64,000 nt of DNA from Clostridia bacterium (GCA_013316045.1 WSNJ01000002.1:743-64742); one strand, 5' to 3'. Shown: positions 1 through 11,320, numbered from the stretch's first letter. Numbers and translations are program-made. Notes: a model not told the origin generated them from the sequence alone.

Positions 1-1
1 T

Positions 2-367
2 ATAATACATAATTTATCGCCAAAAGCAAAAACAATAGCCATAACATTAGAGGACACCACACATATAATTAAAGACTTTACACATTGGTGCATTTGGAAT
101 ATTGCGGCTGATAATAGAATTGAAAAAGGTATTCCAAAGGGAAAAATTGTGCCGTCGTTAGGATACGCCATACAAGGATTTGCTTACGGTTTGCACCGCT
201 ATGCGGGACCAAAACCGCCCAAAGGAAAAATGCATATCTATCGTTTTACTGTTTATTCGCTTGACTGCACAATCGAATTAAGTGCAAATAAAAGCAAAAA
301 AGCCTTTCTAAAAATAGCCCATAATCACATATTGCAAAAAGGCTCTATCTTGGGCGAATTTGAATAG
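2..367 (+). CDS. PEBP (YbhB/YbcL) family protein, 5' end cut by window edge
   Basis: The frame is open from nt 2. The translation ...FTHWCIWNIAADN...YAGPKPPKGKMHIYRFTVYSLD carries the bacterial phosphatidylethanolamine-binding-protein signature (GP.PP...H.Y.F.vY.L). Confidence 0.75.
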   Translation: MIHNLSPKAKTIAITLEDTTHIIKDFTHWCIWNIAADNRIEKGIPKGKIVPSLGYAIQGFAYGLHRYAGPKPPKGKMHIYRFTVYSLDCTIELSANKSKKAFLKIAHNHILQKGSILGEFE

Positions 368-375
368 GCGGGAAT

Positions 376-555
376 ATGGACGAAAACAAAACAATAAAAG
401 CGTCGTATTTTTACGCTTGCTGTCCGAATTGTAAAGCCGTTCTCATTCAAGCACAAAACGGTTTAGAGGGCTATATAAAATGTCCGAAATGCGAAAAATA
501 CATACACGTTACAATCAATAACGGAATTATAAGTACAAATATTAAGAACGCCTAA
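376..555 (+). CDS. small zinc-ribbon protein (59 aa)
   Basis: ATG at 376, TAA at 553-555, below the ORF-track cutoff. It has two Cys pairs (CCPNC ... CPKC) and is followed directly by an intrinsic terminator. Confidence 0.45.
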   Translation: MDENKTIKASYFYACCPNCKAVLIQAQNGLEGYIKCPKCEKYIHVTINNGIISTNIKNA

Positions 556-571
556 AACGGGCGTTCTTTTT
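544..571 (+). terminator. intrinsic terminator
   Basis: AAGAACGCC (544-552) pairs with GGCGTTCTT (560-568) over 9 bp, with a 7-nt loop, and runs into a T-tract. Confidence 0.7.
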
Positions 572-721
572 CTATAAAATAAGTGATAATCTGACAAAGC
601 CTTTTATTTTTGCCGCTGTTAGAAATGTTATACTCCGAACGGCGGATTTTATATTTTTATGCATAAATACCGCAGAATATTTTAATCTGTTTTCGAGCCA
701 GATTCAGCATACAAGAAAGTG

Positions 722-774
722 CCGAAACGGAGCAATACCGCCTTAATAGGGTTTGCTTTCGTTCGGTCTTTTTT
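722..774 (+). terminator. terminator-like hairpin with no upstream CDS
   Basis: CCGAAACGGAGCAA (722-735) pairs with TTGCTTTCGTTCGG (753-766) over ~13 bp with two bulges, followed by TCTTTTTT. Confidence 0.4.
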
Positions 775-785
775 CATTTATGGGC

Positions 786-821
786 TATTGCACCCCGTCG
801 GCGTATTGCACGCTGTCGGGG
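786..821 (+). repeat. two tandem 18-nt iteron-like repeats
   Basis: TATTGCACCCCGTCGGCG (786-803) and TATTGCACGCTGTCGGGG (804-821) match at 15/18 positions. The second unit runs into the 5' arm of the 811-854 hairpin. Confidence 0.6.
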
Positions 822-854
822 CTTTTCTATATACGGCGAAAACCGCCGACAGCG
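811..854 (+). other. long imperfect hairpin with loop TATATACGGC
   Basis: 17-nt arms CGCTGTCGGGGCTTTTC (811-827) and GAAAACCGCCGACAGCG (838-854) pair at 15/17 positions. The 10-nt loop at 828-837 contains TATATAC. Confidence 0.55.
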
Positions 855-970
855 ATTTTTTAACAAAAAAATCAAAATCTGAGGGTTTTCAAAATGCAAA
901 CAATTAAAAAAATTTTCAAAAAAAACCGAAACTTTTACCCTCTGCCGTGCTTATAGGTGGAGGTTTTTAT

Positions 971-1375
971 ATGCAAACTATCAAATATACATTTGCGGAC
1001 GGCACTACAAATGAGGTCGAGGTTACGGAAGATATATATTTGATACACTTGGAATTATTACAACAAGAAAAGCGCAACCATTGGAAAGAAACAAGGCGGC
1101 ATACCTCGCTATACTACTTTACCGATTTGGGAATAGATTTTGAGGACAAGCGCACGGAAAGCCCGCTTGATTTATACATACGAAAAGAGAATATCGCAAG
1201 CGTAAGAAAAGCAATGTTATGCCTTACGGACAAGCGGCGCGAACTCATACATAAAGCATTTTTCGAGGAAAAGACATTCCGCGCTATCGCAAGAGAAAAA
1301 GGGTTATCGAAATCGGCAATATCGCAACAAATGAAAACGGTGTACAAGCATTTGCGGAAACATTTGGGGGCGTAG
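971..1375 (+). CDS. sigma-70 region-4-like HTH protein (134 aa)
   Basis: SD GGTGGAGG lies 7 nt before ATG 971. The C-terminus LTDKRRELIHKAFFEEKTFRAIAREKGLSKSAISQQMKTVYKHLRKHL resembles sigma-70 region 4.2 / LuxR-type HTH, as seen in small mobile-element regulators. Confidence 0.6.
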   Translation: MQTIKYTFADGTTNEVEVTEDIYLIHLELLQQEKRNHWKETRRHTSLYYFTDLGIDFEDKRTESPLDLYIRKENIASVRKAMLCLTDKRRELIHKAFFEEKTFRAIAREKGLSKSAISQQMKTVYKHLRKHLGA

Positions 1376-1378
1376 GCT

Positions 1379-1630
1379 ATGGGAAAAGAATTGTATCAGG
1401 TTGTTGCATATATCGCGTTACGCAATAAAGACGGCTCGCCTATGATAAACGTACCCTTGTATGTCAAGGTATCGGAAACAAACAAAAGCGGTATGACGGA
1501 AGCACAAGAAAGCGTTATGCACCGCATATCGGCACTTATGATAAAGCGCAACGAAAAGCAGTTAAGCGATTATTTTGCAAACGCAACGGCAACGTGCGCG
1601 GGCGGCTTGCCGCCCGCGCGTGGCGTATAG
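1379..1630 (+). CDS. hypothetical protein (83 aa)
   Basis: ATG lies 3 nt after the preceding stop. No recognisable motif. The last ~17 codons are formed by the hexamer repeats and the GC hairpin, and the stop codon TAG is the first three bases of the origin nonamer. Confidence 0.4.
   Translation: MGKELYQVVAYIALRNKDGSPMINVPLYVKVSETNKSGMTEAQESVMHRISALMIKRNEKQLSDYFANATATCAGGLPPARGV
1577..1594 (+). repeat. three tandem hexamers (iteron candidates)
   Basis: GCAAAC-GCAACG-GCAACG lies 26 nt upstream of the origin stem-loop. Confidence 0.5.
1596..1619 (+). other. perfect 10-bp GC hairpin abutting the origin stem-loop
   Basis: GCGCGGGCGG (1596-1605), loop CTTG, CCGCCCGCGC (1610-1619). Confidence 0.7.
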
Positions 1631-1644
1631 TATTACCACGCCAC
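1620..1644 (+). other. putative rolling-circle (nick-site) origin: stem-loop with TAGTATTAC
   Basis: GTGGCGT (1620-1626) pairs perfectly with ACGCCAC (1638-1644). The 11-nt loop is A-TAGTATTAC-C, with the nonamer at 1628-1636. It lies 48 nt upstream of the Rep ATG. Confidence 0.8.
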
Positions 1645-1692
1645 TATGTCATATTGTAACGTGTTGGCGGCATTTATAGGGAGTTTTTTATT

Positions 1693-2730
1693 ATGGACGA
1701 AAACAAGGTTAAAATAGATTTGTCGGTTACAGACGAAACAAACGAAAAGCCGAAAAAGAACAAGCAGGCGCGCGATTGGTGCTTTACCGTAAATAACCCT
1801 GTACAAACGGAACAAGAATTTTTGGAGTATTTGAAAACGGTGTCCGATTTGCGGTATGCGGTATTCCAACGTGAACGCGCTCCCGAAACGGGAACGGAAC
1901 ATTATCAAGGGTATTTTGAGTTCACGCAACCCAAATGGTTTACTACCATTAAAAAATACCTATCTAAAAAGACGATAGGCGTTGACGCGCATATAGAACA
2001 ACGCCGTGCCAAACGAACGCAAGCCCGCCTATATTGTATGGACGAGGAAACGAGAATTAGTTCTACTTACTACGAATACGGCGAGTTCATAGAGGACGGC
2101 GAACGTACCGATTTAACCGATATAATGCGCGACATAGAAAACGACGTGAGTTTTTACGACCTTTCCAAAAAGCACGGCAACCGCTTTATACGGGTTATGA
2201 AATGGGCAAAAGAATACAGACAAGCCTATTTGGAAAATAAGTACAAACGGCAATTCCGTAAAATGCAGGTATATTATATTTACGGCTCTGCGGGTTGCGG
2301 AAAGACAAGTTACGTTTTCGGTAAGCACGGCTATGACGACGTTTACAGAACGACAAATTATGAGTTCGGCTGGATAGACGATTACAACGGCGAAAAGGTA
2401 TTGTTTCTTGACGAGTTTCGCAGTTCGTTCAAAATCTCTGAAATACTGGACTACTTGGACGGGCAACCTATACGAATACGAGGGCGACACTATAACCGCG
2501 TTGCTTGCTATGATACGGTTTACATTGTTTCAAATATACCGCTTACGGAGCAATACACCAAAATACAACAGTCCGAGCCTACAACGTGGGCGGCGTTCTT
2601 ACGGCGTATTACAGCGGTATATAATTTCGATATAAGCAAAGAAACGCCCGTAAGCAAGCATACGGGTAAATTGAAAGAAAAGGCTATAACTTTAATACCG
2701 CTTGACGATGACAGCGAAAGTCCGTTTTAG
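1693..2730 (+). CDS. rep: CRESS/circovirus-type replication initiator: HUH endonuclease + SF3 helicase
   Basis: Motif I CFTVNNP. Motif II HYQGY. Motif III region AHIEQRRAKRTQARLYCMDEE. Walker A GSAGCGKT. Walker B VLFLDEF. Motif C IVSN. Confidence 0.9.
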   Translation: MDENKVKIDLSVTDETNEKPKKNKQARDWCFTVNNPVQTEQEFLEYLKTVSDLRYAVFQRERAPETGTEHYQGYFEFTQPKWFTTIKKYLSKKTIGVDAHIEQRRAKRTQARLYCMDEETRISSTYYEYGEFIEDGERTDLTDIMRDIENDVSFYDLSKKHGNRFIRVMKWAKEYRQAYLENKYKRQFRKMQVYYIYGSAGCGKTSYVFGKHGYDDVYRTTNYEFGWIDDYNGEKVLFLDEFRSSFKISEILDYLDGQPIRIRGRHYNRVACYDTVYIVSNIPLTEQYTKIQQSEPTTWAAFLRRITAVYNFDISKETPVSKHTGKLKEKAITLIPLDDDSESPF

Positions 2731-2765
2731 CGGCTCGCTGGGTGGGTTCTCTTGGGTGGGCATAG

Positions 2766-2798
2766 AAAAAGCACAAGGCGTTTAACCTTGTGCTTTTT
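2766..2798 (+). terminator. intrinsic terminator after rep
   Basis: GCACAAGG (2771-2778) pairs with CCTTGTGC (2786-2793), flanked by an A-run and a T-run. Confidence 0.8.
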
Positions 2799-2867
2799 CC
2801 TTACCTTTCAGCGATAAAACCCGCATACCCGTTTACGAATATGTAGTTCGGGTTCAATCTCTGTCGT

Positions 2868-2883
2868 TTCTGGTGCACCAGAA
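2868..2883. repeat. perfect 16-bp palindrome
   Basis: TTCTGGTGCACCAGAA. Confidence 0.6.
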
Positions 2884-2890
2884 GAAAGAA

Positions 2891-2927
2891 GTCGTAATTT
2901 GTCGAAAGACAAATGCGGCTTTTTTTA
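2891..2927 (+). terminator. terminator-like hairpin with no upstream CDS
   Basis: ATTTGTC-GAAA-GACAAAT core extended by GTCG/GCGGC pairs, then TTTTTTT. Its 3' arm plus T-tract form the right copy of the flanking direct repeat. Confidence 0.5.
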
Positions 2928-3020
2928 TTTCCTTGCTGTTCGGGTTTAACTTTATTAGCATAGTGAACAACGTCTAATTTTATAAATGAAAAATTTTTTA
3001 TGTAAAATACTTAAAAATGC

Positions 3021-3051
3021 TTGCTTATTACGTCGCGTAATGAATTATAAT
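3021..3051 (+). promoter_or_regulatory. MerR-type promoter with 19-bp spacer and operator dyad
   Basis: TTGCTT (3021-3026), a 19-nt spacer containing ATTACG-tcg-CGTAAT (3027-3041), and TATAAT (3046-3051). Confidence 0.7.
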
Positions 3052-3069
3052 ATTTGAGAAGGGGTATTT

Positions 3070-3858
3070 ATGGCAAGATATAAAGTAATTCCACAAGGAT
3101 TTATGACGGTTGGCGAAGTCGCAAAGAAAATGGGCGTAACCGTTCGGGCGTTGCAATATTATGACCGCGAAGGGCTATTCAGTCCGTCTTGTATAAGCGA
3201 AGGCGGACGGCGTTTGTATAGCGATAAAGATGTTGTTATGTTGCATCAGATACTTACCCTTAAATCGTTAGGGTTTTCATTTAATGAAATTAAAAACCGT
3301 ATGACTTCTATCGATACGCCTCGGAAAGCAATAGTTGCATTGACAGAACAGAGCAATTCCATACAAACACAAATAAATACGCTTAATCAATCTTTACAAT
3401 CAATCGAACTATTGAAAAATGAAATAGAACAAATGCAAGTAGTTGACTTTTCAAAGTATGCCGATATTATTATCAACTTGCAAATGGGAAATAAGTATTA
3501 CGGTTTAATTAAACATTTTGACGATAATATGCTTGATTACTGTCATAAGAAATTCGATAAAGGTACGGGTGTTGCGTTTATAAATAAGTTCAACTTGATT
3601 GTCGGTAAAATAGAAAAATGCGTTGAAAACGGCATAGCACCCGAAAGCGAACAAGGACAACTTATTGCAAAAGAATTTTGGCAACTTATAACAGAGTTTA
3701 CGGGCGGCGATGTGAGTATGTTATCACAACTGATGAATTTCGGAAACGCACAAGCGGATAACGATATGCAAAATATACTGAATGCTTTTATCGAGCCTGC
3801 GCTGAACGTTTATTTCGGTAATTCGGGTATAAACCCTTTCGAGGCAAAAAATGAATAA
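3070..3858 (+). CDS. MerR family transcriptional regulator
   Basis: The N-terminus MTVGEVAKKMGVTVRALQYYDREGLFSP is the MerR winged-HTH signature. A coiled-coil and an effector domain follow. Confidence 0.85.
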   Translation: MARYKVIPQGFMTVGEVAKKMGVTVRALQYYDREGLFSPSCISEGGRRLYSDKDVVMLHQILTLKSLGFSFNEIKNRMTSIDTPRKAIVALTEQSNSIQTQINTLNQSLQSIELLKNEIEQMQVVDFSKYADIIINLQMGNKYYGLIKHFDDNMLDYCHKKFDKGTGVAFINKFNLIVGKIEKCVENGIAPESEQGQLIAKEFWQLITEFTGGDVSMLSQLMNFGNAQADNDMQNILNAFIEPALNVYFGNSGINPFEAKNE

Positions 3859-4663
3859 TATAATCGAAGTCAATGAGTTAAAAAAGAGTTACGGCACTAA
3901 TACCGTATTGAAAGGAATAAATTTAACCGTACGCAAAGGAGAAATCTTTGCCTTGCTCGGCGTAAACGGTGCGGGCAAAACTACGGCTTTGGAATGTATC
4001 GAGGGCTTACGCGCATACGACGGCGGAAATATAACCGTAAACGGGAAAATCGGTATTCAATTACAATCGTCCGCCTTGCAAGCCTATATTAAACCTATGG
4101 AAGCGGTGAAACTGTTTGCGAATTGGCATAAAACCGTTCCCGATAAAGAGACGTTAAATTCTTTCGGAATACCCGAATTGTCCAAAAAGAAATATGCCGA
4201 TTTATCTACGGGGCAAAAACGCCGCTTACACCTTGCGCTTGCCCTTATAGGCAACCCCGATATTATTTTTCTTGACGAACCTACGGCGGGACTTGACGTA
4301 GAGGGGCGCGTATCGCTACACAAACAAATACGAGCATTAAAAACGCAAGGCAAAACAATTATTCTTGCAAGCCACGATATGGCGGAAGTTGAAGAATTAT
4401 GCGACAGAGTAGCGGTTTTACGTAACGGATATATTGCTTTTATCGGAACGGTTGACGAATTTACCGCTATGGGCGGCAAAAGGCACATTATACGCGTTAA
4501 AACAGCCTACGGGCAAAACGAATACGAAACGGAAAATATAACGGAAACTCTTTTTGCGCTATTATCGGAATGCAAGCAAAAAGGAATATCTATTTCCGAA
4601 ATTCAGACCGACAGAGTATCGCTTGAACAAAATTTTATAAACATTGTGAGGGGTGCGGAATAA
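3851..4663 (+). CDS. ABC transporter ATP-binding protein
   Basis: Walker A GVNGAGKTT, signature LSTGQKRRL, Walker B IIFLDEPTAGLD. It overlaps merR by 8 nt. Confidence 0.9.
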   Translation: MNNIIEVNELKKSYGTNTVLKGINLTVRKGEIFALLGVNGAGKTTALECIEGLRAYDGGNITVNGKIGIQLQSSALQAYIKPMEAVKLFANWHKTVPDKETLNSFGIPELSKKKYADLSTGQKRRLHLALALIGNPDIIFLDEPTAGLDVEGRVSLHKQIRALKTQGKTIILASHDMAEVEELCDRVAVLRNGYIAFIGTVDEFTAMGGKRHIIRVKTAYGQNEYETENITETLFALLSECKQKGISISEIQTDRVSLEQNFINIVRGAE

Positions 4664-5373
4664 TGAAGGCATTATTGTACGGAATCGTTTTGCAATTCAA
4701 GTTTGACATACGCAGTAAAGGTATGCTTATAACTTGCTATCTCGTGCCGCTTGTATTTTTCCTGTTTATGGGCGGAATTTTCACGTCTATTGACCCAAAC
4801 GCTACAAAAACTATTATCTCGTCAATGACGGTATTCACAATTATAATGAGCGCATTATTCGGCGTACCGCCCGCTGTTGCGGAAATCTACGGTACAGACG
4901 TTAAAAAGGTCTATAAAGCAAACGGCGCACCTATATGGTTTGGCGTTATATCGCAGTTTATTTCGTCTTTTATACATACGCTTATATGCTGTCTTATAGT
5001 TTTTGCACTTTCGCCATTAATTTTCAAAGCGGAATTGCCGTCTGATTTGATATGGTATTTTTTATCGCTTATAGCGTTGCTTGCGATAACTCTTGCTATC
5101 GGTTGTATTTTCGGACTTTTGATTAAGCAGCAGGCAAAATTGACAATGGTTGCAATGGCAATTTTCTTGCCGTCCACTATGCTGTCGGGTATTATGTTTT
5201 CCGCAGATATGTTGCCGCAGTTTATGCAATATATTGCCTATGCTTTCCCCGCCGCAATAGCATTTAAGGCAATGACGGGTTTTCGGGTTTGGCATTTACC
5301 CGTATTGTTCTGTATATTTATTTTACTTTGCGGCGTTATTGTTCTATTGTTAAAATTTAAGATTAAACGATAA
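4663..5373 (+). CDS. ABC-2 type transporter permease
   Basis: About 6 hydrophobic helices. ATGA start/stop overlap with the ATPase gene. Confidence 0.75.
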   Translation: MKALLYGIVLQFKFDIRSKGMLITCYLVPLVFFLFMGGIFTSIDPNATKTIISSMTVFTIIMSALFGVPPAVAEIYGTDVKKVYKANGAPIWFGVISQFISSFIHTLICCLIVFALSPLIFKAELPSDLIWYFLSLIALLAITLAIGCIFGLLIKQQAKLTMVAMAIFLPSTMLSGIMFSADMLPQFMQYIAYAFPAAIAFKAMTGFRVWHLPVLFCIFILLCGVIVLLLKFKIKR

Positions 5374-5404
5374 TTGACTTATGGTCGAAAGTATATCCGA
5401 GCAT

Positions 5405-5430
5405 AAAAGGGCGCAATATGCGCCTTTTTT
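5405..5430 (+). terminator. intrinsic terminator
   Basis: AAAAGGGCGC-aatat-GCGCCTTTTTT. Confidence 0.7.
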
Positions 5431-5475
5431 GTATAACCCGAATATTTTTCAATATTTCTTTTTCGCGTTTTTCGG

Positions 5476-5504
5476 TTGATTTTATGTTTTGAAAGTTGTA
5501 TACT
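5476..5504 (+). promoter_or_regulatory. sigma-70-like promoter of trkAH
   Basis: TTGATT, 17 nt, TATACT. A 15-bp palindrome CGGATATTATATCCG lies downstream at 5528-5542. Confidence 0.5.
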
Positions 5505-5562
5505 TATAAAGTTATTACTTAATCAGTCGGATATTATATCCGCAGAGAGTCGGAAAAAATTT

Positions 5563-6936
5563 ATGAGAATCATTGTAGTCGGTTGCGGCAAGATAGGAAA
5601 AACAATCATAGCGAACCTAATCAGAGAAAAGCACGAAGTGGTGGCGATAGACAGCAAACCGTCTATCGTTGCCGAAGTTTCTAATTTATTCGACGTTATG
5701 GCGATATGCGGAAACGGCGCCGAGTATGACAAGCTCGAAAAAGCGGAAGTAAACAAAGCGGACGTTTTCGTTGCGGTTACTAATTCCGACGAGTTGAATA
5801 TGCTTGCCTGTTTTGCGGCAAAGCGTATGGGAGCAAAGCATACGGTAGCGCGGATACGCAACGCGGGCAATAACGACGACAGCCTTGCTTTTATGCGTAA
5901 ACAGCTCGAACTGTCGGTTGCTATAAATCCCGAAAAACGCACGGCGCGCGCGATATACAATTTGCTGAAACTGTCGTCCGCGAGCAAAGTCGAAACGTTC
6001 GGAAACCACGGTTTCGAAATGATGGAGTTTACGTTGCGCGAGAGCTCCGCGTTAGACGGGCTGTCGCTTATAGACCTGAAAAAGAAATACAACAAGACGG
6101 CTTTTCTCGTCTGCGCGGTAGGGCGGGACGATAAAATGTTTATCCCCAAGGGCGATTTTACGTTGCGCGCGGGCGACAAAGTAGGCTTGATTATGTCGGA
6201 AGAAGATACGACTCCCGTTCTTAAAATGCTCGGCATAGCTCAAAAGCAAGTCCGTAACGTTATTGTACTCGGCGCGGGCAGAACTTCGTATTATCTGACT
6301 GAAATGCTCTTAAAGCACAGAATATCCGTCAAGATTATAGAGCGCGACAAAGCGCGTTGCGAAGAATTTTCCGAAAGATTTCCGCGCGCCGAAGTCGTAT
6401 GCGGCGACGGTATGAGCGGCGACTTGCTTGCCGAAGAAGGAATTTCCGAAGCGGACGCGTTGGTCGCACTTACGGGCAGGGACGAAGAAAACATACTCAT
6501 ATCTTTCTACGCTATGTCGCAGAGCGTTCCGAAAGTTGTAGCCAAGGTCAACCGCGGCGAGCAGTCGGCGCTTGCCGAAAAACTCGGTTTGGAGTGCATA
6601 GTATCGCCGCAGAAAACGGTTGCCGACATTCTCGTGCGTTACGCGCGCGCGTTGCAGATGTCGGTCGGCAGCGAAATGGAAAAGCTGTACAGCTTGATGA
6701 ACGGCAACGCCGAGGGGCTTGAATTTAACGTGTTGCCAGATTTTCCGTTCTGCGATATACCGCTCAAACGGCTCAGATTCAAGCCTGGTATTCTGTTGGC
6801 GGGCATTCTGCGCGGAAAAGAAAAGATTATCCCCGGCGGCGACGACGTGATAAAGAGCGGCGACAAAGTTATTCTTATTGCCTCCGATTGTATAGTATAC
6901 AGTTTAACCGAAGTTATCGAGGGGGAAAACGAATGA
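5563..6936 (+). CDS. trkA: Trk potassium uptake protein TrkA (two RCK/NAD-binding modules)
   Basis: MRIIVVGCGKIGK and a second VIVLGAGRTS Rossmann motif. The start was moved to ATG 5563 from the ORF-track 5476. Confidence 0.9.
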   Translation: MRIIVVGCGKIGKTIIANLIREKHEVVAIDSKPSIVAEVSNLFDVMAICGNGAEYDKLEKAEVNKADVFVAVTNSDELNMLACFAAKRMGAKHTVARIRNAGNNDDSLAFMRKQLELSVAINPEKRTARAIYNLLKLSSASKVETFGNHGFEMMEFTLRESSALDGLSLIDLKKKYNKTAFLVCAVGRDDKMFIPKGDFTLRAGDKVGLIMSEEDTTPVLKMLGIAQKQVRNVIVLGAGRTSYYLTEMLLKHRISVKIIERDKARCEEFSERFPRAEVVCGDGMSGDLLAEEGISEADALVALTGRDEENILISFYAMSQSVPKVVAKVNRGEQSALAEKLGLECIVSPQKTVADILVRYARALQMSVGSEMEKLYSLMNGNAEGLEFNVLPDFPFCDIPLKRLRFKPGILLAGILRGKEKIIPGGDDVIKSGDKVILIASDCIVYSLTEVIEGENE

Positions 6937-8381
6937 ATTACCGTATGATTTTTTATACGGTCGGCAAAGTGTTGCGTATGGAAAGCATAATACTTGTGCT
7001 TCCCGCGATAGTGTCGCTCATATACGGCGAATATTTCCCCGCGGCGTCGCTCATAGCCGGCGCGGCAGTCGCGCTCGTAGTCGGTTACGCGCTTCTGCTC
7101 TGCTTAAAGCCGAAAAATACAACTTTTTATGCGAAAGAAGGGCTTATAACCGTTACTCTCGCTTGGATTTTCATTTCGCTTATAGGCGCGTTGCCGTTTG
7201 TGATTTCGGGCGAGATTCCGTCGTATATCGACGCCGTTTTCGAAACGGTAAGCGGCTTTACGACAACGGGCGCGTCGATTTTGCGCGACGTTACGGTAAT
7301 GAGCAAAGGTTTGCTGTTTTGGAGAAGTTTTACTCATTGGGTCGGCGGTATGGGTATCTTGGTATTCGTTATCGCGCTTTCTCAGAAATCGCCCGACAGG
7401 TCGATGAATATTCTGCGCGCGGAAATGCCCGGACCTATCGTCGATAAGCTCGTGCCCAAAACGAGAGATACGGCTAAAATTCTTTATTTGATTTACGTTG
7501 TTTTCACGCTCGTGCTGATAATATTCCTGCTCTGCGGCGGTATGCCGCTTTTTGACAGCGTGGTGCACGCGTTCGGAACGGCGGGAACGGGCGGTTTCGG
7601 AATAAAAGCCGACAGTATAGCAAGTTACAGCCCGTATCTTCAATGGGTTATTGCGATTTTTATGCTGTTGTTCGGCATAAACTTTAACTTGTACTACCTG
7701 ATTTTAATCCGTAAGTTAAGGCTTGCGCTTTCGAGCGGAGAACTCAGAACGTATCTTATAATAGTTCTCGTAAGCGTCGGGGTGGTTTGTTACAGCATTT
7801 ATCCTATGTATCAAAACTTCGGCGAAGTTCTCAGACTTTCGGTTTTTCAGGTGTCGACGGTTATAACCACTACCGGTTACGCAACGGCGGACTTTGCGAG
7901 TTGGCCGACTTTGGCGCGCGCCGTTCTCGTTCTTTTGATGTTCTTCGGAGCCTGCGCCGGTTCGACCGCGGGCGGACTGAAAATCTCCCGAGTCGTCATA
8001 CTTTTCAAGAAAATCGGCAACGAGTTACGCAGAGCCGTGCACCCGCGCAGTGTAAGCGTAGTTAAGTTCGAGGGAAAAAAAGTAGAAGAAGACACGCTCA
8101 ACGGAGTAGGGTCGTATCTTGCCGTATACGCCGTATCGCTGTTGTGTATGTTCCTTTTGCTTAGCATAGAAACGCGGTTCGATTTTGAAACGAATTTTAC
8201 GGCGGTCGTAGCTTGTTTTAACAATATAGGTCCCGGAATGGGGCTTGTAGGACCTATGGGAAGCTATGCGGACTATTCGGTTTTTTCCAAGATAGTCCTG
8301 TCGTTCGGTATGTTGCTCGGTCGGCTCGAAATTTATCCGTTGCTTATAGCTTGCAACCCGCGGACTTGGATAAGAAGATAG
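6933..8381 (+). CDS. trkH: TrkH family potassium transporter
   Basis: Polytopic, with TrkH motifs SGFTTTGAS, GTAGTGGFG, TTTGYAT and AGSTAGGLK. ATGA overlap with trkA. Confidence 0.9.
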   Translation: MNYRMIFYTVGKVLRMESIILVLPAIVSLIYGEYFPAASLIAGAAVALVVGYALLLCLKPKNTTFYAKEGLITVTLAWIFISLIGALPFVISGEIPSYIDAVFETVSGFTTTGASILRDVTVMSKGLLFWRSFTHWVGGMGILVFVIALSQKSPDRSMNILRAEMPGPIVDKLVPKTRDTAKILYLIYVVFTLVLIIFLLCGGMPLFDSVVHAFGTAGTGGFGIKADSIASYSPYLQWVIAIFMLLFGINFNLYYLILIRKLRLALSSGELRTYLIIVLVSVGVVCYSIYPMYQNFGEVLRLSVFQVSTVITTTGYATADFASWPTLARAVLVLLMFFGACAGSTAGGLKISRVVILFKKIGNELRRAVHPRSVSVVKFEGKKVEEDTLNGVGSYLAVYAVSLLCMFLLLSIETRFDFETNFTAVVACFNNIGPGMGLVGPMGSYADYSVFSKIVLSFGMLLGRLEIYPLLIACNPRTWIRR

Positions 8382-8385
8382 AAGT

Positions 8386-9495
8386 ATGTTATATTCGTTA
8401 AGCGAAACTGCAAAGTGGTCGATAATACTCGCGGCGGTCGTCGTCGTAGCGACGGTTATTTTTTTGTTGCTCGCGGGATATAAGACGTTTTCTCGGATGT
8501 TCGGCATATATTCTAAACCTTACGTGATGCGCGGCAACAAGAGCAGGCAGAAAGCGGATAAAATAAAGTCCGACGCGCGTTCCGCGCCCGCGCTTGCCGA
8601 AGCGGAGAACGCGAAAAAACTGTTTTTCACAAACCGCATTTCCGGTTCGCCGTTTTATCTGCCCGACGATATGTGGGCGAAAAAGCCGCGCGAATATTCG
8701 CTCGGCTTTGAAAAATCGGAAATTTACGCGTACTTTTTCAGCGCGGACGATTTCTCCGAATGCCGCAAGTACTCGCAGGTTTCGGGGCAAGGCGCGGGGA
8801 TAGAGAGCGCAAAGAGCAACAGATTTGCGATTGTTCTGCACGGATACGACCAATGCGGACTCGATACCTATAAGATAGCTTACGAGTTTATGCGCCGCGG
8901 AATAAACGTAATTTCTCCGGACCTTACGGGGCACGGAAAGGATTCGGGAAAGTTCGTTTCTTACGGTTACCGCGACAGACTTTACGTGTTGAAATGGATA
9001 GATTTCATTATTTCCGAATGCGAAAACGCCGAGATTTATCTGTACGGCGTATCTATGGGCGCGGCGACCGCATTGTACACGCTGGGCGAAAGTCTGCCCG
9101 ATAACGTTAAGGCTTGCGTGAGCGACTGTTCGTTTGCGTCGATTTACGACGAATGCGTAAAACAGCTTAAAAAGCGCAAAAGAGTACCGACGTTTCCGAT
9201 TATGAACATCGTCGTTTTCTTCGGCAAAAAGCTGTTGAAATACAATGTGAAAAAAGTTTCCGTAAAAGCGGCGGCGGAGCGCAACGGAAAAGTTCCCGTG
9301 CTGTTTTTCCACGGCAAAGACGACAGGTTCGTAACTCCCGACCGAACGCAGACGCTGTACGACGCGTCGCGCGTGCGGAAACAAATCGTTCTTTACGACG
9401 GAACGCGCCACGCCGAATCGATGGTATTGAACTTTAACGACTATTGGGAAAACATAGACCGGTTTATTAAAGGAGAAGAAGAATGTTCAAAATAG
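8386..9495 (+). CDS. membrane-anchored alpha/beta hydrolase
   Basis: N-terminal TM helix. Nucleophile elbow GVSMGA. HG...D...H arrangement. Confidence 0.75.
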   Translation: MLYSLSETAKWSIILAAVVVVATVIFLLLAGYKTFSRMFGIYSKPYVMRGNKSRQKADKIKSDARSAPALAEAENAKKLFFTNRISGSPFYLPDDMWAKKPREYSLGFEKSEIYAYFFSADDFSECRKYSQVSGQGAGIESAKSNRFAIVLHGYDQCGLDTYKIAYEFMRRGINVISPDLTGHGKDSGKFVSYGYRDRLYVLKWIDFIISECENAEIYLYGVSMGAATALYTLGESLPDNVKACVSDCSFASIYDECVKQLKKRKRVPTFPIMNIVVFFGKKLLKYNVKKVSVKAAAERNGKVPVLFFHGKDDRFVTPDRTQTLYDASRVRKQIVLYDGTRHAESMVLNFNDYWENIDRFIKGEEECSK

Positions 9496-10319
9496 GTTGC
9501 CATTTGTCTATTTCCGACGGGTATCTCGCCGCGGCGAAACAGGCGAGCGCGTTAGGCGCGAATACGTTTCAGTATTTTTCGAGAAATCCGCGCGGCGGAA
9601 GCGCTCGCAAGGTCGACGAAAAGGATATAACGGCTTTCAACGAATATCTGAAAGAAAACAATTTCGGCAAGATTGTAGCTCACGCGCCGTATACGCTCAA
9701 CGCTTGCTCCGCCGAACCGCGCACGCGCGTATTTGCGCGCGAGTGTATGCAGGGCGACTTGGAAACGATGCGCAACTTCGACGGATTTTATTATAATTTT
9801 CACCCCGGTTCGCACACTGCTTTGACGGCGGACGAGGGTATCGGGTTGATAACGGCTCAGCTCAACGCCATACTTTCGACCGATTACAATACGACGGTTT
9901 TGCTCGAAACTATGTCGGGCAAGGGCAGTGAACTCGGTTATTCTTTCGAGCAGCTCAAAACGATAATCGACGGCGTGGAAAACAATAAAAATTTAGGCGT
10001 GCTTCTCGATACGTGTCATATTTATTCGGCGGGATACGATATAGTAAACGACCTTGACGGAACGCTCGAAAAGTTCGATTCCGTCGTGGGTATTGAAAGA
10101 CTGAAAGCTATTCACGTAAACGACAGTATGACCCCGTTCGACAGCAGAAAGGACAGGCACGAAAAACTCGGTAAAGGCACGATAGGATTGGACGCGATAG
10201 CGCGCATTATAAATCACGACAGCTTGAAAGACCTTGTTTTCATACTCGAAACGCCGAACGAACTCGACGGCTACAAGTACGAAATAGAACTGTTGAAATC
10301 GCTCAGAAACGACAAATAA
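9483..10319 (+). CDS. nfo: deoxyribonuclease IV (endonuclease IV)
   Basis: IGCHLS, HAPYTLN, FHPGSH, LLETMSGKGSELG, DTCHIYSAGYD, HVNDS, DRHEKLGKGTIG, ILETP. Confidence 0.9.
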   Translation: MFKIGCHLSISDGYLAAAKQASALGANTFQYFSRNPRGGSARKVDEKDITAFNEYLKENNFGKIVAHAPYTLNACSAEPRTRVFARECMQGDLETMRNFDGFYYNFHPGSHTALTADEGIGLITAQLNAILSTDYNTTVLLETMSGKGSELGYSFEQLKTIIDGVENNKNLGVLLDTCHIYSAGYDIVNDLDGTLEKFDSVVGIERLKAIHVNDSMTPFDSRKDRHEKLGKGTIGLDAIARIINHDSLKDLVFILETPNELDGYKYEIELLKSLRNDK

Positions 10320-10384
10320 ATACAAGTAAAAACATACCCGAAAAAGCGCGGATAATAAAATTCGCGCCTTTTTGTTTATATCGC

Positions 10385-10413
10385 TTGATTTATGTCGGAA
10401 AAAAAGTTATACT
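10385..10413 (+). promoter_or_regulatory. sigma-70-like promoter of degV
   Basis: TTGATT, 17 nt, TATACT. Confidence 0.5.
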
Positions 10414-10465
10414 ATACTCGGTATACTTAAAAAGAAAAGTATAATTTTCGAAAGGAGATATGTTA

Positions 10466-11320
10466 ATGAGTAAATTTTTTTGCGACAGTAATTGCGAACT
10501 CGATTATAAAAGGTTCGACGAATTGAAAATCGACGGACTTATAAAAATGCCGTATACCGTAAACGGCGAAGAATCGGAATACGACCTCGGCAGAAGCGGC
10601 GGCAGTAAAGAATTTTTCGATAAAATGCGCGCGGGCGCGTCCGTTAAAACGCAGGCGCTGAACCAAGCGAACTATATAGATTATTTCGAACCCGTACTTG
10701 CGGGCGGCGACGATATACTTTACGTAACGTTCACGCACAAAATGAGCGCGACGTTCGAGTCGATGAAAGCGGCGATAGAAGAACTGAAAGCGAAATATCC
10801 CGATCGCAAAATCACTTGGGTAGACAGCAAGGGCATAAGTATGGCGGCGGGAATCGTCGTTTACTTTGCGGCGAAATTGCACAACGAAGGCAAGTCGGAC
10901 GAAGAAGTCGTGGCTTTCGTCGAAGACTTCCGCGAAAAAGTAAAGACGTATTTTACGGTCGACGACTTGGTTTATTTGAAGCGCGGCGGCAGACTTTCGA
11001 GCTTTAAGGCTCTTATGGGAACGATGCTCAACTTAAAACCGATAATAACTATTCAGGACGGCGCGCTCGTCAGTCTTGAAAAAGCAAAGGGCAGAAAGAA
11101 AGCCGTTCATACGATATTGGACAAGCTCGCAAGCGACGGCGTAGATACGAGTCGCCCGATAGTGCTTATCGACGCGGATTCGCCCGACGACGCGTCTATG
11201 GCGAAAGAAATGATACTCGAAAAGTATCCCGAAGCCGACGTATGGAGAATAGACGTAGGTCCGGTTATCGGTTGCCATTGCGGACCCGACACTCTCGGTC
11301 TTATATTCGTAAAAAAGTAA
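10466..11320 (+). CDS. degV: DegV family fatty-acid-binding protein
   Basis: DegV-like layout (CDSNCELD..., SATFESM, DSKGISMA, GRLS). SD AAAGGAG lies 8 nt before ATG 10466. Confidence 0.8.
   Translation: MSKFFCDSNCELDYKRFDELKIDGLIKMPYTVNGEESEYDLGRSGGSKEFFDKMRAGASVKTQALNQANYIDYFEPVLAGGDDILYVTFTHKMSATFESMKAAIEELKAKYPDRKITWVDSKGISMAAGIVVYFAAKLHNEGKSDEEVVAFVEDFREKVKTYFTVDDLVYLKRGGRLSSFKALMGTMLNLKPIITIQDGALVSLEKAKGRKKAVHTILDKLASDGVDTSRPIVLIDADSPDDASMAKEMILEKYPEADVWRIDVGPVIGCHCGPDTLGLIFVKK

Follow-up and report, generated by a model that had tools for sequence, protein, structure and literature searches.

The DNA analysed here, referred to as the window, is a stretch of 64,000 nucleotides from Clostridia bacterium (GCA_013316045.1 WSNJ01000002.1:743-64742), and its first 2,875 positions very probably constitute the right part of an integrative element of about 6.1 kb that combines a large serine recombinase, the 3' end of tRNA genes as target and a replication module of the type found in circular Rep-encoding single-stranded (CRESS) DNA viruses. 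An earlier note, made from the window sequence alone, had described the region around the rep gene as a possible circular replicon of 2.3 kb, integrated between imperfect direct repeats at 593-620 and 2908-2940 and without an integrase. The placing of the Rep region within an integrated element that passes through a circular form was upheld by the comparison with relatives; the delimiting repeats, the size and the lack of an integrase were not.

Boundaries were mapped by BLAST of window positions 1-6000 against 67 related loci. Relatives of the Rep protein were present in 63 loci, nearly all in metagenome-assembled genomes (MAGs) of Clostridia and many from mouse gut, with many contigs ending inside the element. 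The right limit of homology fell at 2876-2887 in every context (at 2876 in loci with a tRNA gene on the Rep side, at 2880-2887 in the others), and no left limit was found inside the window. In 34 loci with unrelated DNA beyond it the right end was conserved, homology stopping at 2875/2876 within the palindrome TGGTGCACCA, which occurs once in the window where none is expected. Leftward homology passed position 1 at 94-95% identity in L005, L006, L008, L009, L010 and L014. In L005, which is 94% identical, window position 1 corresponds to 8306 and the block shared with other loci runs from 5047 to 11186. By this comparison the element would measure about 6.1 kb, of which about 3.26 kb would precede the window start and 1-2875 would be the right-hand 47%. 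Element length was 5,624-6,372 bp in the eight loci with both ends visible (5.6-6.4 kb, against the 2.3 kb formerly proposed), and the junction alignments of 34 right and 9 left ends agreed.

The two strings proposed as repeats, GACAAAGCCTTTTATTTTTGCCGCTGTT at 593-620 and GACAAATGCGGCTTTTTTTATTTCCTTGCTGTT at 2908-2940, are present and can be aligned as the earlier note had written them, with three gaps required and a local score of 25. An equal score was obtained in 7 of 20,000 random window pairs spaced 1.5-4 kb apart, and the right string was matched equally well by 13 of 12,794 windows sampled over the 64 kb, probably including the two reported copies. As about 1 million candidate left/right pairs flank a 1-kb gene, hundreds of such matches are expected at random, and the similarity is therefore at chance level; the pair was also not listed by an ungapped repeat finder. 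The description of the right copy as the 3' arm of a hairpin plus a U-tract proved correct (2877-2945 folds at -22.1 kcal/mol, z = -3.7), and the left copy has no comparable hairpin (z = -1.3). The right string is host DNA, made up of the terminator 3' arm, its U-tract and the next 14 bases, and reads as a displaced host terminator. GC content was rejected as a boundary marker: it is 47.8% for the whole window and 42.8% for 621-2907, which is below host level and not above it, and 38.6% for 2877-5373. The flanks look GC-poor because they are foreign DNA too, 1-620 being the rest of the same element and 2877-5373 mostly a separately mobile MerR/ABC cassette.

A CRESS-like circle of about 621-2907, inserted by the host Xer system or by Rep with partial duplication of a T-rich site and with no integrase of its own, would account for the existence of two strings that align with gaps and for the position of Rep, the origin and two small genes between them. 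Its probability is nevertheless close to nil, given the chance-level similarity and the host origin of the right string. Neither string matches any boundary among the 67 related loci; homology in other contexts crosses 593-620 and ends at 2876, short of the right string by about 32 bp. Comparison with related genomes, the check that the earlier note had itself proposed, thus places the boundaries elsewhere, a result which that note had listed as contrary to its reading. Relatives also carry a serine integrase at the far end. Insertion by Xer or Rep is not needed and was rejected, as the ends coincide with neither the Rep nick site nor a dif-like site and lie in a palindrome of the serine-integrase type. 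As had been stated, neither a recombinase nor a capsid gene is visible within the window, and an upstream integrase outside the window, one of the options that had been offered, matches what the relatives show.

Alignment of the element ends pointed to tRNA genes as the target. All right ends read ...GGTTCAATCTCTGTC(N5)TGGTGC and are followed either by the reverse complement of a tRNA 3' end or by ACCA and unrelated DNA folding as a terminator, and all left ends read GCACCA(A/T)AGACGATAAAGGTTGAACC and are preceded either by a plus-strand tRNA gene or by unrelated DNA ending in TGGT. Exactly one end adjoined a tRNA 3' end in each of the eight two-ended loci, on the integrase side in four and on the Rep side in four. 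Among 18 tRNA-adjoining Rep-side ends, 16 lay at tRNA-Leu genes with five anticodons and two at tRNA-Lys genes; more distant relatives were located at the CCA end of tRNA-Ser or tRNA-Ala. When the flanks of L013 were joined, the order tRNA-Leu(caa)-ACCA-terminator was obtained, and an unoccupied tRNA-Leu(caa) gene in L042 shares this arrangement and can be aligned over the junction. As the window reads ...TGGTGC/ACCA and then a terminator (slashes here and below marking the junction), its tRNA gene is expected at the unseen integrase end. No tRNA gene and no P' arm within 3 mismatches were found in the window. The empty site predicted for the locus is tRNA...GCACCA/GAAGAAAGAAGTCGTAATTTG.

The attP site, reconstructed from the two ends and not observed as a junction, would be a 50-bp imperfect palindrome, GGTTCAATCTCTGTCGTTTCTGGTG/CACCAAAGACGATAAAGGTTGAACC, with arms of 25 bp each that match as an inverted repeat at 20 of 26 positions around TGGTG/CACCA. 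The junction predicted for the circle is ...GTCGTTTCTGGTG/CACCAAAGACGATAAAGG..., also written ...CTCTGTCGTTTCTGGTG/CACCAAAGACGATAAAGGTTGAACC. Both P arms contain the motif TTGAACC at half-site positions 19-25; in the tRNA arm, where the motif is complementary to the T-loop GGTTCAA, it is found at positions 14-20. An outer motif lying 5 bp further inward in attB than in attP has been described for the Listeria integrase system, as the zinc-ribbon-domain motif (PMC3783163). A tRNA end simply copied into the element would not show this shift. The symmetry centre of the core is the self-complementary GC, which is the probable crossover dinucleotide. With serine integrases, insertion orientation is determined by nothing but the central dinucleotide, and either orientation is possible when the core is symmetric (PMC3556126). 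The usual asymmetric dinucleotide with one fixed orientation was not found here, the two-ended loci being divided four against four by tRNA side, which matches the behaviour reported for mutants with symmetric cores. Insertion in both orientations would be explained by the self-complementary GC core and, as the core is palindromic, the tRNA gene would regain its ACCA either way. At the right ends of L028, L030 and L042 (about 11230-11250), tRNA-Ser relatives were seen to join at TGGCGGAG.., the tRNA ending in ..GCCA, and the tRNA-Ala relative L038 joins at TGGTGGAG...; from these junctions the core of each integrase lineage would therefore follow the discriminator base of the tRNA that the lineage prefers.

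The recombinase itself was identified in relatives, next to the element end in all eight two-ended loci, a position outside the window. In L005 it is encoded at 4949-6571(-) and matches PF00239 (E = 1e-29), PF07508 (E = 2e-18) and PF13408 (E = 2e-8), the domains Resolvase, Recombinase and Zn_ribbon_recom. Recombination of attP with attB by this integrase is inferred from its domains and from the site architecture. The conserved integrase sequence stops exactly at the crossover, at about residue 508, and in integrated copies the frame runs into outside DNA, so that the tails are unrelated and 5-50 residues long. When the reconstructed attP is read through, the frame extends over window positions 2875-2801 on the minus strand, encoding HQKRQRLNPNYIFVNGYAGFIAER and a stop. 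Frame and stop are the same in all 21 distinct versions of this tail. Variable sites were distributed 6, 6 and 14 over the three codon positions (14 of 26 at the third), and the other two frames mostly contain stops. The stop abuts the terminator at 2765-2799, which also follows Rep. The integrase tail frame across attP is the best indirect line of evidence and suggests a functional circular form. Integration would itself alter the integrase C-terminus, and the swap of C-termini is a possible alternative means of directionality control.

Several observations weigh against this reading of the element. The integrase, the left end and the tRNA gene lie outside the window and are deduced for its copy from relatives of 94-95% identity, and the one further contig of the strain (L068) likewise starts inside the element. 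A contig of 100% identity is present in SRR10380311. No empty site of the exact locus was found when JGI metagenome contigs were scanned for exact matches to the flank AATTTGTCGAAAGACAAATGCGGC, of which there were none. The exact MerR protein of the flank is encoded on only one further contig, and this too begins within the element; MerR homologues of 90-91% identity stand in other contexts, so that no empty site was obtained from these. A degenerate pattern of the attP junction was not found in JGI metagenome contigs, whose sampling of the family was not gauged, nor in IMG/VR, where the family is nearly absent (one rearranged locus) and the negative therefore carries little weight. No candidate for a recombination directionality factor was recognised in the element. 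The tRNA-distal attB arm is variable, with only scattered similar motifs, and is thus a poorly conserved half-site. Crossover is possible at any 2 bp of the shared GCACCA, the choice of GC deriving from the symmetry centre.

The lack of a visible left part and of a circular junction in public contigs would also be compatible with the window copy being an inactive remnant, a decayed old insertion no longer able to excise or replicate, as clear remnants of the family do exist (L066, L080 and L031/L048/L051). This is considered improbable, as the four open reading frames (ORFs) lying wholly inside the window part are all intact and match complete relatives collinearly at 94%, and as the end, the origin and the integrase-tail frame are likewise intact. 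Furthermore, an identical Rep (100% at the amino acid level) within DNA of 99.3-99.4% identity was found in L001-L004 at a different tRNA-Leu gene, in the opposite orientation and with a ComEC gene as neighbour, and several MAGs hold two or three copies of the element. The near-identical copy at another tRNA-Leu gene and the multi-copy MAGs suggest that the element has been mobile recently.

Decayed or rearranged family members were observed in their own right. In L066 (9771-10084), a tRNA-Leu(tag) gene is followed by a P' arm, 60 integrase C-terminal codons and then an 84-bp Rep fragment. L080 (IMGVR_UViG_3300012570_000041), the sole relative in IMG/VR, is a rearranged copy in a contig called viral; it carries a truncated Rep (from window position 2281), and its end breaks off short of the core, at ...GTCGTTTCTG/CGTGTC. 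In L029 (1546-3625 of a 4-kb contig) the region of the helix-turn-helix (HTH) and 83-residue genes appears to be partly duplicated in tandem upstream of Rep, window positions 939-1581 and 1218-2626 mapping to overlapping stretches; this duplication could be an assembly artefact or real.

The replication module was assigned from its Rep protein and origin (Table 1). Rep matched the Rep of PCV2 (7lar) with E = 1.3e-19 over residues 26-310 and was 36% and 40% identical (E = 7e-59 and 2e-65) to the pCRESS2 Reps SCH60086.1 and WP_036328238.1, whose sequences were re-typed from the published supplementary alignment, the assignment being made by pairwise identity. Identity to RepA of the 4.5-kb Bifidobacterium pseudocatenulatum plasmid (NC_003527) was 30%. 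The motifs FTVNN, HYQ and YC, Walker A and B and the asparagine of motif C are all present. The nonamer TAGTATTAC of the origin was kept in about 45 loci on three different stems, each mutually complementary and thus co-varying. These structures were obtained from individual folds, as RNAalifold returned none, the stems being out of register in the alignment. Iteron-like short direct repeats follow at 1641-1665, just after the origin. By analogy with circovirus and nanovirus origins, Rep would be expected to nick between T1634 and A1635 (TAGTATT^AC). Both hallmarks of CRESS viruses, the Rep and the nonanucleotide stem-loop origin, are thus present; no capsid-like match was found in Pfam or PHROGs. 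Broken origins were also seen: L041, with its origin upstream of Rep at 132, has a chimeric origin with a 5' arm of the GGTGGA type and a 3' arm of the TTTACGCCA type, and the lineage of L031, L048 and L051 has just the part of the origin 3' of ..TTAC/C, joined to unrelated DNA. These fit Rep-mediated recombination at the nick site, as the expected cutting by Rep at the loop would explain breaks there.

Table 1. Features of the element and its right junction in window coordinates.
Feature	Position	Strand	Basis or remark
Cargo gene 3' part, phosphatidylethanolamine-binding protein, YbhB-like	1..367	+	PF01161 E = 2e-9; cut by window edge
59-aa Cys-rich (zinc-ribbon-like) ORF	376..555	+	ORF list; weak zinc-ribbon matches only
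Left 'repeat' of the earlier note	593..620		Intergenic, inside element; homology to L005, L006, L008, L009, L010 and L014 continues straight across
Non-coding stretch	621..970		Structured as single strand, z = -3.0; junction of cargo and conserved core at about 905
Sigma-70 region 4 / KorA-like helix-turn-helix protein, presumed regulator	971..1375	+	PF04545 E = 7e-8; phrog_11138 E = 7e-22
Conserved 83-aa protein	1379..1630	+	130 homologues, all at least 60% identical, none named; confined to these elements
GC-rich 10-bp hairpin directly 5' of origin	1596..1619		Fold; conserved across loci
Rolling-circle origin (putative)	1620..1644	+	7-bp stem GTGGCGT/ACGCCAC, 11-nt loop ATAGTATTACC; nonamer TAGTATTAC at 1628-1636
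Rep, HUH endonuclease + superfamily 3 helicase, 345 aa, pCRESS2-like	1693..2730	+	PF02407 E = 6e-17; PF00910
Bidirectional terminator hairpin	2765..2799		-26 kcal/mol, z = -5.9; between Rep stop (2730) and circular-form integrase stop (2801-2803)
Integrase tail, last 24 codons and stop	2801..2875	-	In frame only in the predicted circular form; HQKRQRLNPNYIFVNGYAGFIAER and stop
P arm, right element end	2851..2875	+	GGTTCAATCTCTGTCGTTTCTGGTG; 20/26 positions match P' arm as inverted repeat
Palindromic core TGGTGCACCA	2871..2880		Probable crossover G2875-C2876; ACCA 2877-2880 tRNA-derived
Host intrinsic terminator normally 3' of targeted tRNA gene	2884..2926	+	Fold; ACCA-then-terminator also in L005, L010, L013 and at the unoccupied L042 tRNA-Leu(caa)

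Given the proposal that Reps of the PF02407 type serve streptococcal integrative mobilizable elements (IMEs) as non-canonical relaxases (PMC5704250), Rep might act mainly as a relaxase nicking the origin as an oriT; a conjugative element in the same cell would then provide the mating pore for export, and autonomous replication would be a secondary function. The lack of capsid and morphogenesis genes in the 6-kb form and the presence of cargo cassettes typical of such elements would agree with this. However, both IMEs with PF02407 proteins in the survey of Guedon et al. 2017 (PMC5704250) also encode TcpA, an FtsK-like coupling protein of which no counterpart was seen in the scanned ORFs of the window part, L005 and L038, and Rep retains its full superfamily 3 helicase domain together with a classic origin and iteron-like repeats. 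As the closest viral relatives of Rep moreover adjoin Zot in filamentous-phage genomes, a primarily mobilizable element is judged unlikely, if somewhat less so than a dead remnant.

The integrative element with its own serine recombinase and replication module would accordingly be read as having four parts: the minus-strand recombinase gene at one end; a cargo slot with small regulator-plus-effector cassettes; a conserved core of HTH regulator, 83-residue protein, circovirus-type origin and pCRESS2-like Rep; and a 25-bp att arm at each end. In its proposed life cycle a circular double-stranded DNA form would carry the 50-bp attP, which the integrase would recombine with a tRNA gene, mostly one for tRNA-Leu of any anticodon, at its very 3' end (...GCACCA), probably reading the T-loop GGTTCRA as the zinc-ribbon-domain motif and the acceptor/CCA end as the core. 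The self-complementary GC would permit either orientation, and the palindrome would restore the tRNA ACCA both ways. Integration would remove the last 24 integrase codons, and full-length integrase would therefore be encoded by the excised circle only. After excision, nicking of TAGTATT^AC in the stem-loop by Rep would start rolling-circle replication; nicking, the existence of the circle and its replication are all deduced from sequence. In the window copy, the Rep end would lie on the tRNA-distal side.

The cargo slot extends from the integrase leader to about 905, and its contents differ by locus. Homology in L012, L013, L017, L018, L020, L021, L023 and L059 begins only at 904-946 and extends rightwards. 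The type seen in the window consists of TetR, a metallo-beta-lactamase-fold gene and a gene for a phosphatidylethanolamine-binding-like protein, the end of which occupies 1-367; this stretch is collinear at 94% with L005 8306-8672, where the full 161-residue gene follows the other two in the slot. Other types comprise LytTR with a CAAX protease, AraC/GyrI with an acyltransferase, and MerR/GyrI with DUF3781. A homologue of the 59-residue ORF follows the cargo in L069 (12298-12428, 76% identity), and in the window a terminator hairpin comes after this ORF (544-568).

A second group of elements, with Reps 81-86% identical, contains an extra 5.2-6.4 kb between the 83-residue gene and the origin, the short form being the long form minus this module; the HTH gene is found in both. 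The long form was seen in a cultured strain, Anaerocaecibacter muris CLA-AA-M11 (L038 3100-11180, NZ_CALPCE010000002.1), where a 12-kb form lies at tRNA-Ala(ggc). It encodes proteins of 321, 175 (membrane), 724 (coiled coil and Listeria-Bacteroides repeats), 121, 140 and 302 (P-loop) residues, those of 175 and 724 residues being membrane-anchored. The P-loop protein (8684-9592) lies upstream of Rep with one 106-residue ORF between them and belongs to a family of 101 members, all unnamed. A model of the 92%-identical family member P0122 (pLDDT 75.6) gave the N-domain of Neisseria Zot (2r2a) as its best match (E = 9e-8, TM 0.58) and also matched Inoviridae Zot models (E = 5e-8 to 2e-6); the P-loop protein had no Pfam Zot match and its sequence similarity to Zot is weak. 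No pI/Zot-like ATPase is present in the window's short form. No recognisable major coat protein was found in the long form and no candidate coat or adsorption genes in the short form, and no FtsK-like ATPase or single-stranded DNA-binding protein (SSB) domains were found in the scanned ORFs of the short form (window part and L005) or of the long form L038.

Long and short forms occur together in at least two MAGs (MGBC105190 and MGBC105282), and probably in MGBC135946, where the second copy is too truncated to classify. It may tentatively be proposed, at well below even chances, that the 6-kb element is a miniature or satellite of the 12-kb, filamentous-phage-like element of gut Clostridia, sharing with it an integrase that reads the tRNA T-loop and CCA end, setting directionality by the circle-only 24-residue tail with no separate factor, replicating by its own Rep and being exported by the long form. 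If so, the larger element would pair a circovirus-type Rep and origin with a Zot-like ATPase.

Among the remaining features of the element, the HTH gene probably starts at ATG 971, which follows GGAGG; the mechanical ORF start is GTG 947. The 83-residue protein was modelled as a beta-hairpin and a long helix with low confidence (pLDDT 66.7) and gave no structural match with E < 1. A role in single-stranded DNA binding like that of inovirus gpV was considered for it and could not be supported. The stretch 620-950 folds better than shuffled sequences (z = -3.0), and the non-coding region 621-970 is a possible promoter or lagging-strand origin. Within it, at 780-853, two copies of TATTGCAC(N4-5)GTCGG spaced 18 bp apart and a CGGCG-AAAA-CCGCCG hairpin precede the HTH gene, and these may be an operator or single-strand origin. 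No Rfam match was found in 1-3100.

To the right of the element, a cassette of MerR, ABC ATPase and ABC-2 permease genes occupies 2963-5373 at 38.6% GC, the host having 48.5%. Copies of 91% identity occur in L069-L079 with different flanks on both sides, and the cassette is thus mobile itself. The cassette adjoins a serine-recombinase gene in L069-L071 (split into two ORFs) and L076 (partial); it occupies the cargo slot in L069-L071 and is followed in L069 by the homologue of the window's zinc-ribbon ORF. A second, tandem element in the right flank was rejected, as the 82 bp that separate the MerR cassette from the core are unlike the integrase leader or P' arm. A stretch of about 330 bp, comprising the integrase start and upstream leader, is 85% identical between L005 (6500-6827) and L069 (9519-9833), whose integrases are merely 42% identical over the first 210 residues or so and 24% over the remainder. 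The L069 leader contains repeated ACAA(A/T)TTGTCAAGG motifs. The conserved leader could have a regulatory role common to both elements or, alternatively, be a recombination hotspot bounding the cargo slot.

Eukaryotic CRESS-DNA viruses have been proposed to descend from integrated plasmids that encode CRESS-virus-like Reps. The family described here would place a CRESS replication module on a serine recombinase that targets the universal tRNA 3' end, and many sites per genome would therefore be available, in either orientation and with the tRNA gene repaired each time. A serine integrase with a naturally symmetric core, the gene of which is interrupted by the enzyme's own attachment site, would offer a compact model of directionality control, and recognition of the T-loop and CCA end shared by all tRNA genes could make a multi-site tool for genome engineering. 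With a Zot-like ATPase in the 12-kb form of a cultured strain, it becomes testable whether bacteria harbour filamentous viruses with circovirus-type Reps. Elements of this kind break assemblies, and methods that rely on direct repeats of at least 10 bp will miss them.

Compared with known systems, the element most resembles pCRESS2, which is likewise found in Clostridia, has a Rep with HUH and superfamily 3 helicase domains, integrates site-specifically, mostly at tRNA genes, and is without known viral structural genes. Integrated pCRESS elements were reported to carry CRESS-like Reps, to lie mostly at tRNA genes, to use tyrosine integrases and to have direct-repeat att sites, two such entries in Supplementary Table 1 being 24 and 33 bp, and many encode an FtsK-like ATPase and SSB (Kazlauskas, Varsani, Koonin, Krupovic 2019, PMC6668415). 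In contrast, the window family has a large serine recombinase, 6 bp of identity with its target, both orientations and neither FtsK-like ATPase nor SSB. With the serine integrases of phages (Listeria A118/LI, Bxb1, phiC31) it shares the three-domain recombinase, an imperfect-palindrome attP of about 50 bp, crossover identity of a few bases and an outer motif repeated in attB 5 bp nearer the centre, here seen on the tRNA arm. Those integrases use one unique site in a protein gene, whereas the window family targets the generic 3' ends of many tRNA genes, has a naturally symmetric GC dinucleotide and carries attP inside the 3' end of the integrase ORF. No serine integrase with tRNA-Leu as attB was found described in the open-access literature searched, the coverage of which was incomplete. 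In the integration-dependent immunity systems of mycobacteriophages, attP lies inside a gene and integration changes the C-terminus of its product; there the gene spanning attP encodes a repressor, and here the integrase.

The 'bajarodino viruses', putative filamentous phages from rodent faeces (PQ006121, PQ006184), have Reps that contain a superfamily 3 helicase domain and are 30-32% identical over 83-89% of the window Rep, with Zot directly upstream of Rep; the 12-kb form is similar, with its 106-residue ORF between the two. They differ in having a transposase instead of this integrase, and the window element is without Zot-like, coat or adsorption genes; no other long-form protein matched the bajarodino genomes. 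A survey of inoviruses included one Rep family with an S3H domain (iPF_00203) and serine recombinases among the integration genes, and defined att sites as direct repeats of at least 10 bp (Roux et al. 2019, PMC6813254); under this rule the window family would be missed. Circoviridae and other CRESS-DNA viruses (PCV2 Rep 7lar) share the domain order and motifs of Rep and the TAGTATTAC stem-loop followed by short direct repeats, in contrast to which the window element is bacterial, integrated double-stranded DNA of 6 kb with cargo and integrase and no capsid gene. IMEs of the IME_SiniSF1_ebfC type resemble it as small integrated elements with an integrase, a PF02407 Rep-like protein and cargo; IMEs with rolling-circle-type relaxases are unlike it in their TcpA coupling protein, none of which was found in the scanned ORFs of the window part and L005. 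The RS1 satellite of CTXphi keeps replication, regulation and integration functions and lacks morphogenesis genes, and the short form is similar in both respects, its dependence on a helper being hypothetical. Integrated Rep plasmids as such were already known, and what appears to be new relative to the published pCRESS elements is the serine recombinase in place of a tyrosine integrase.

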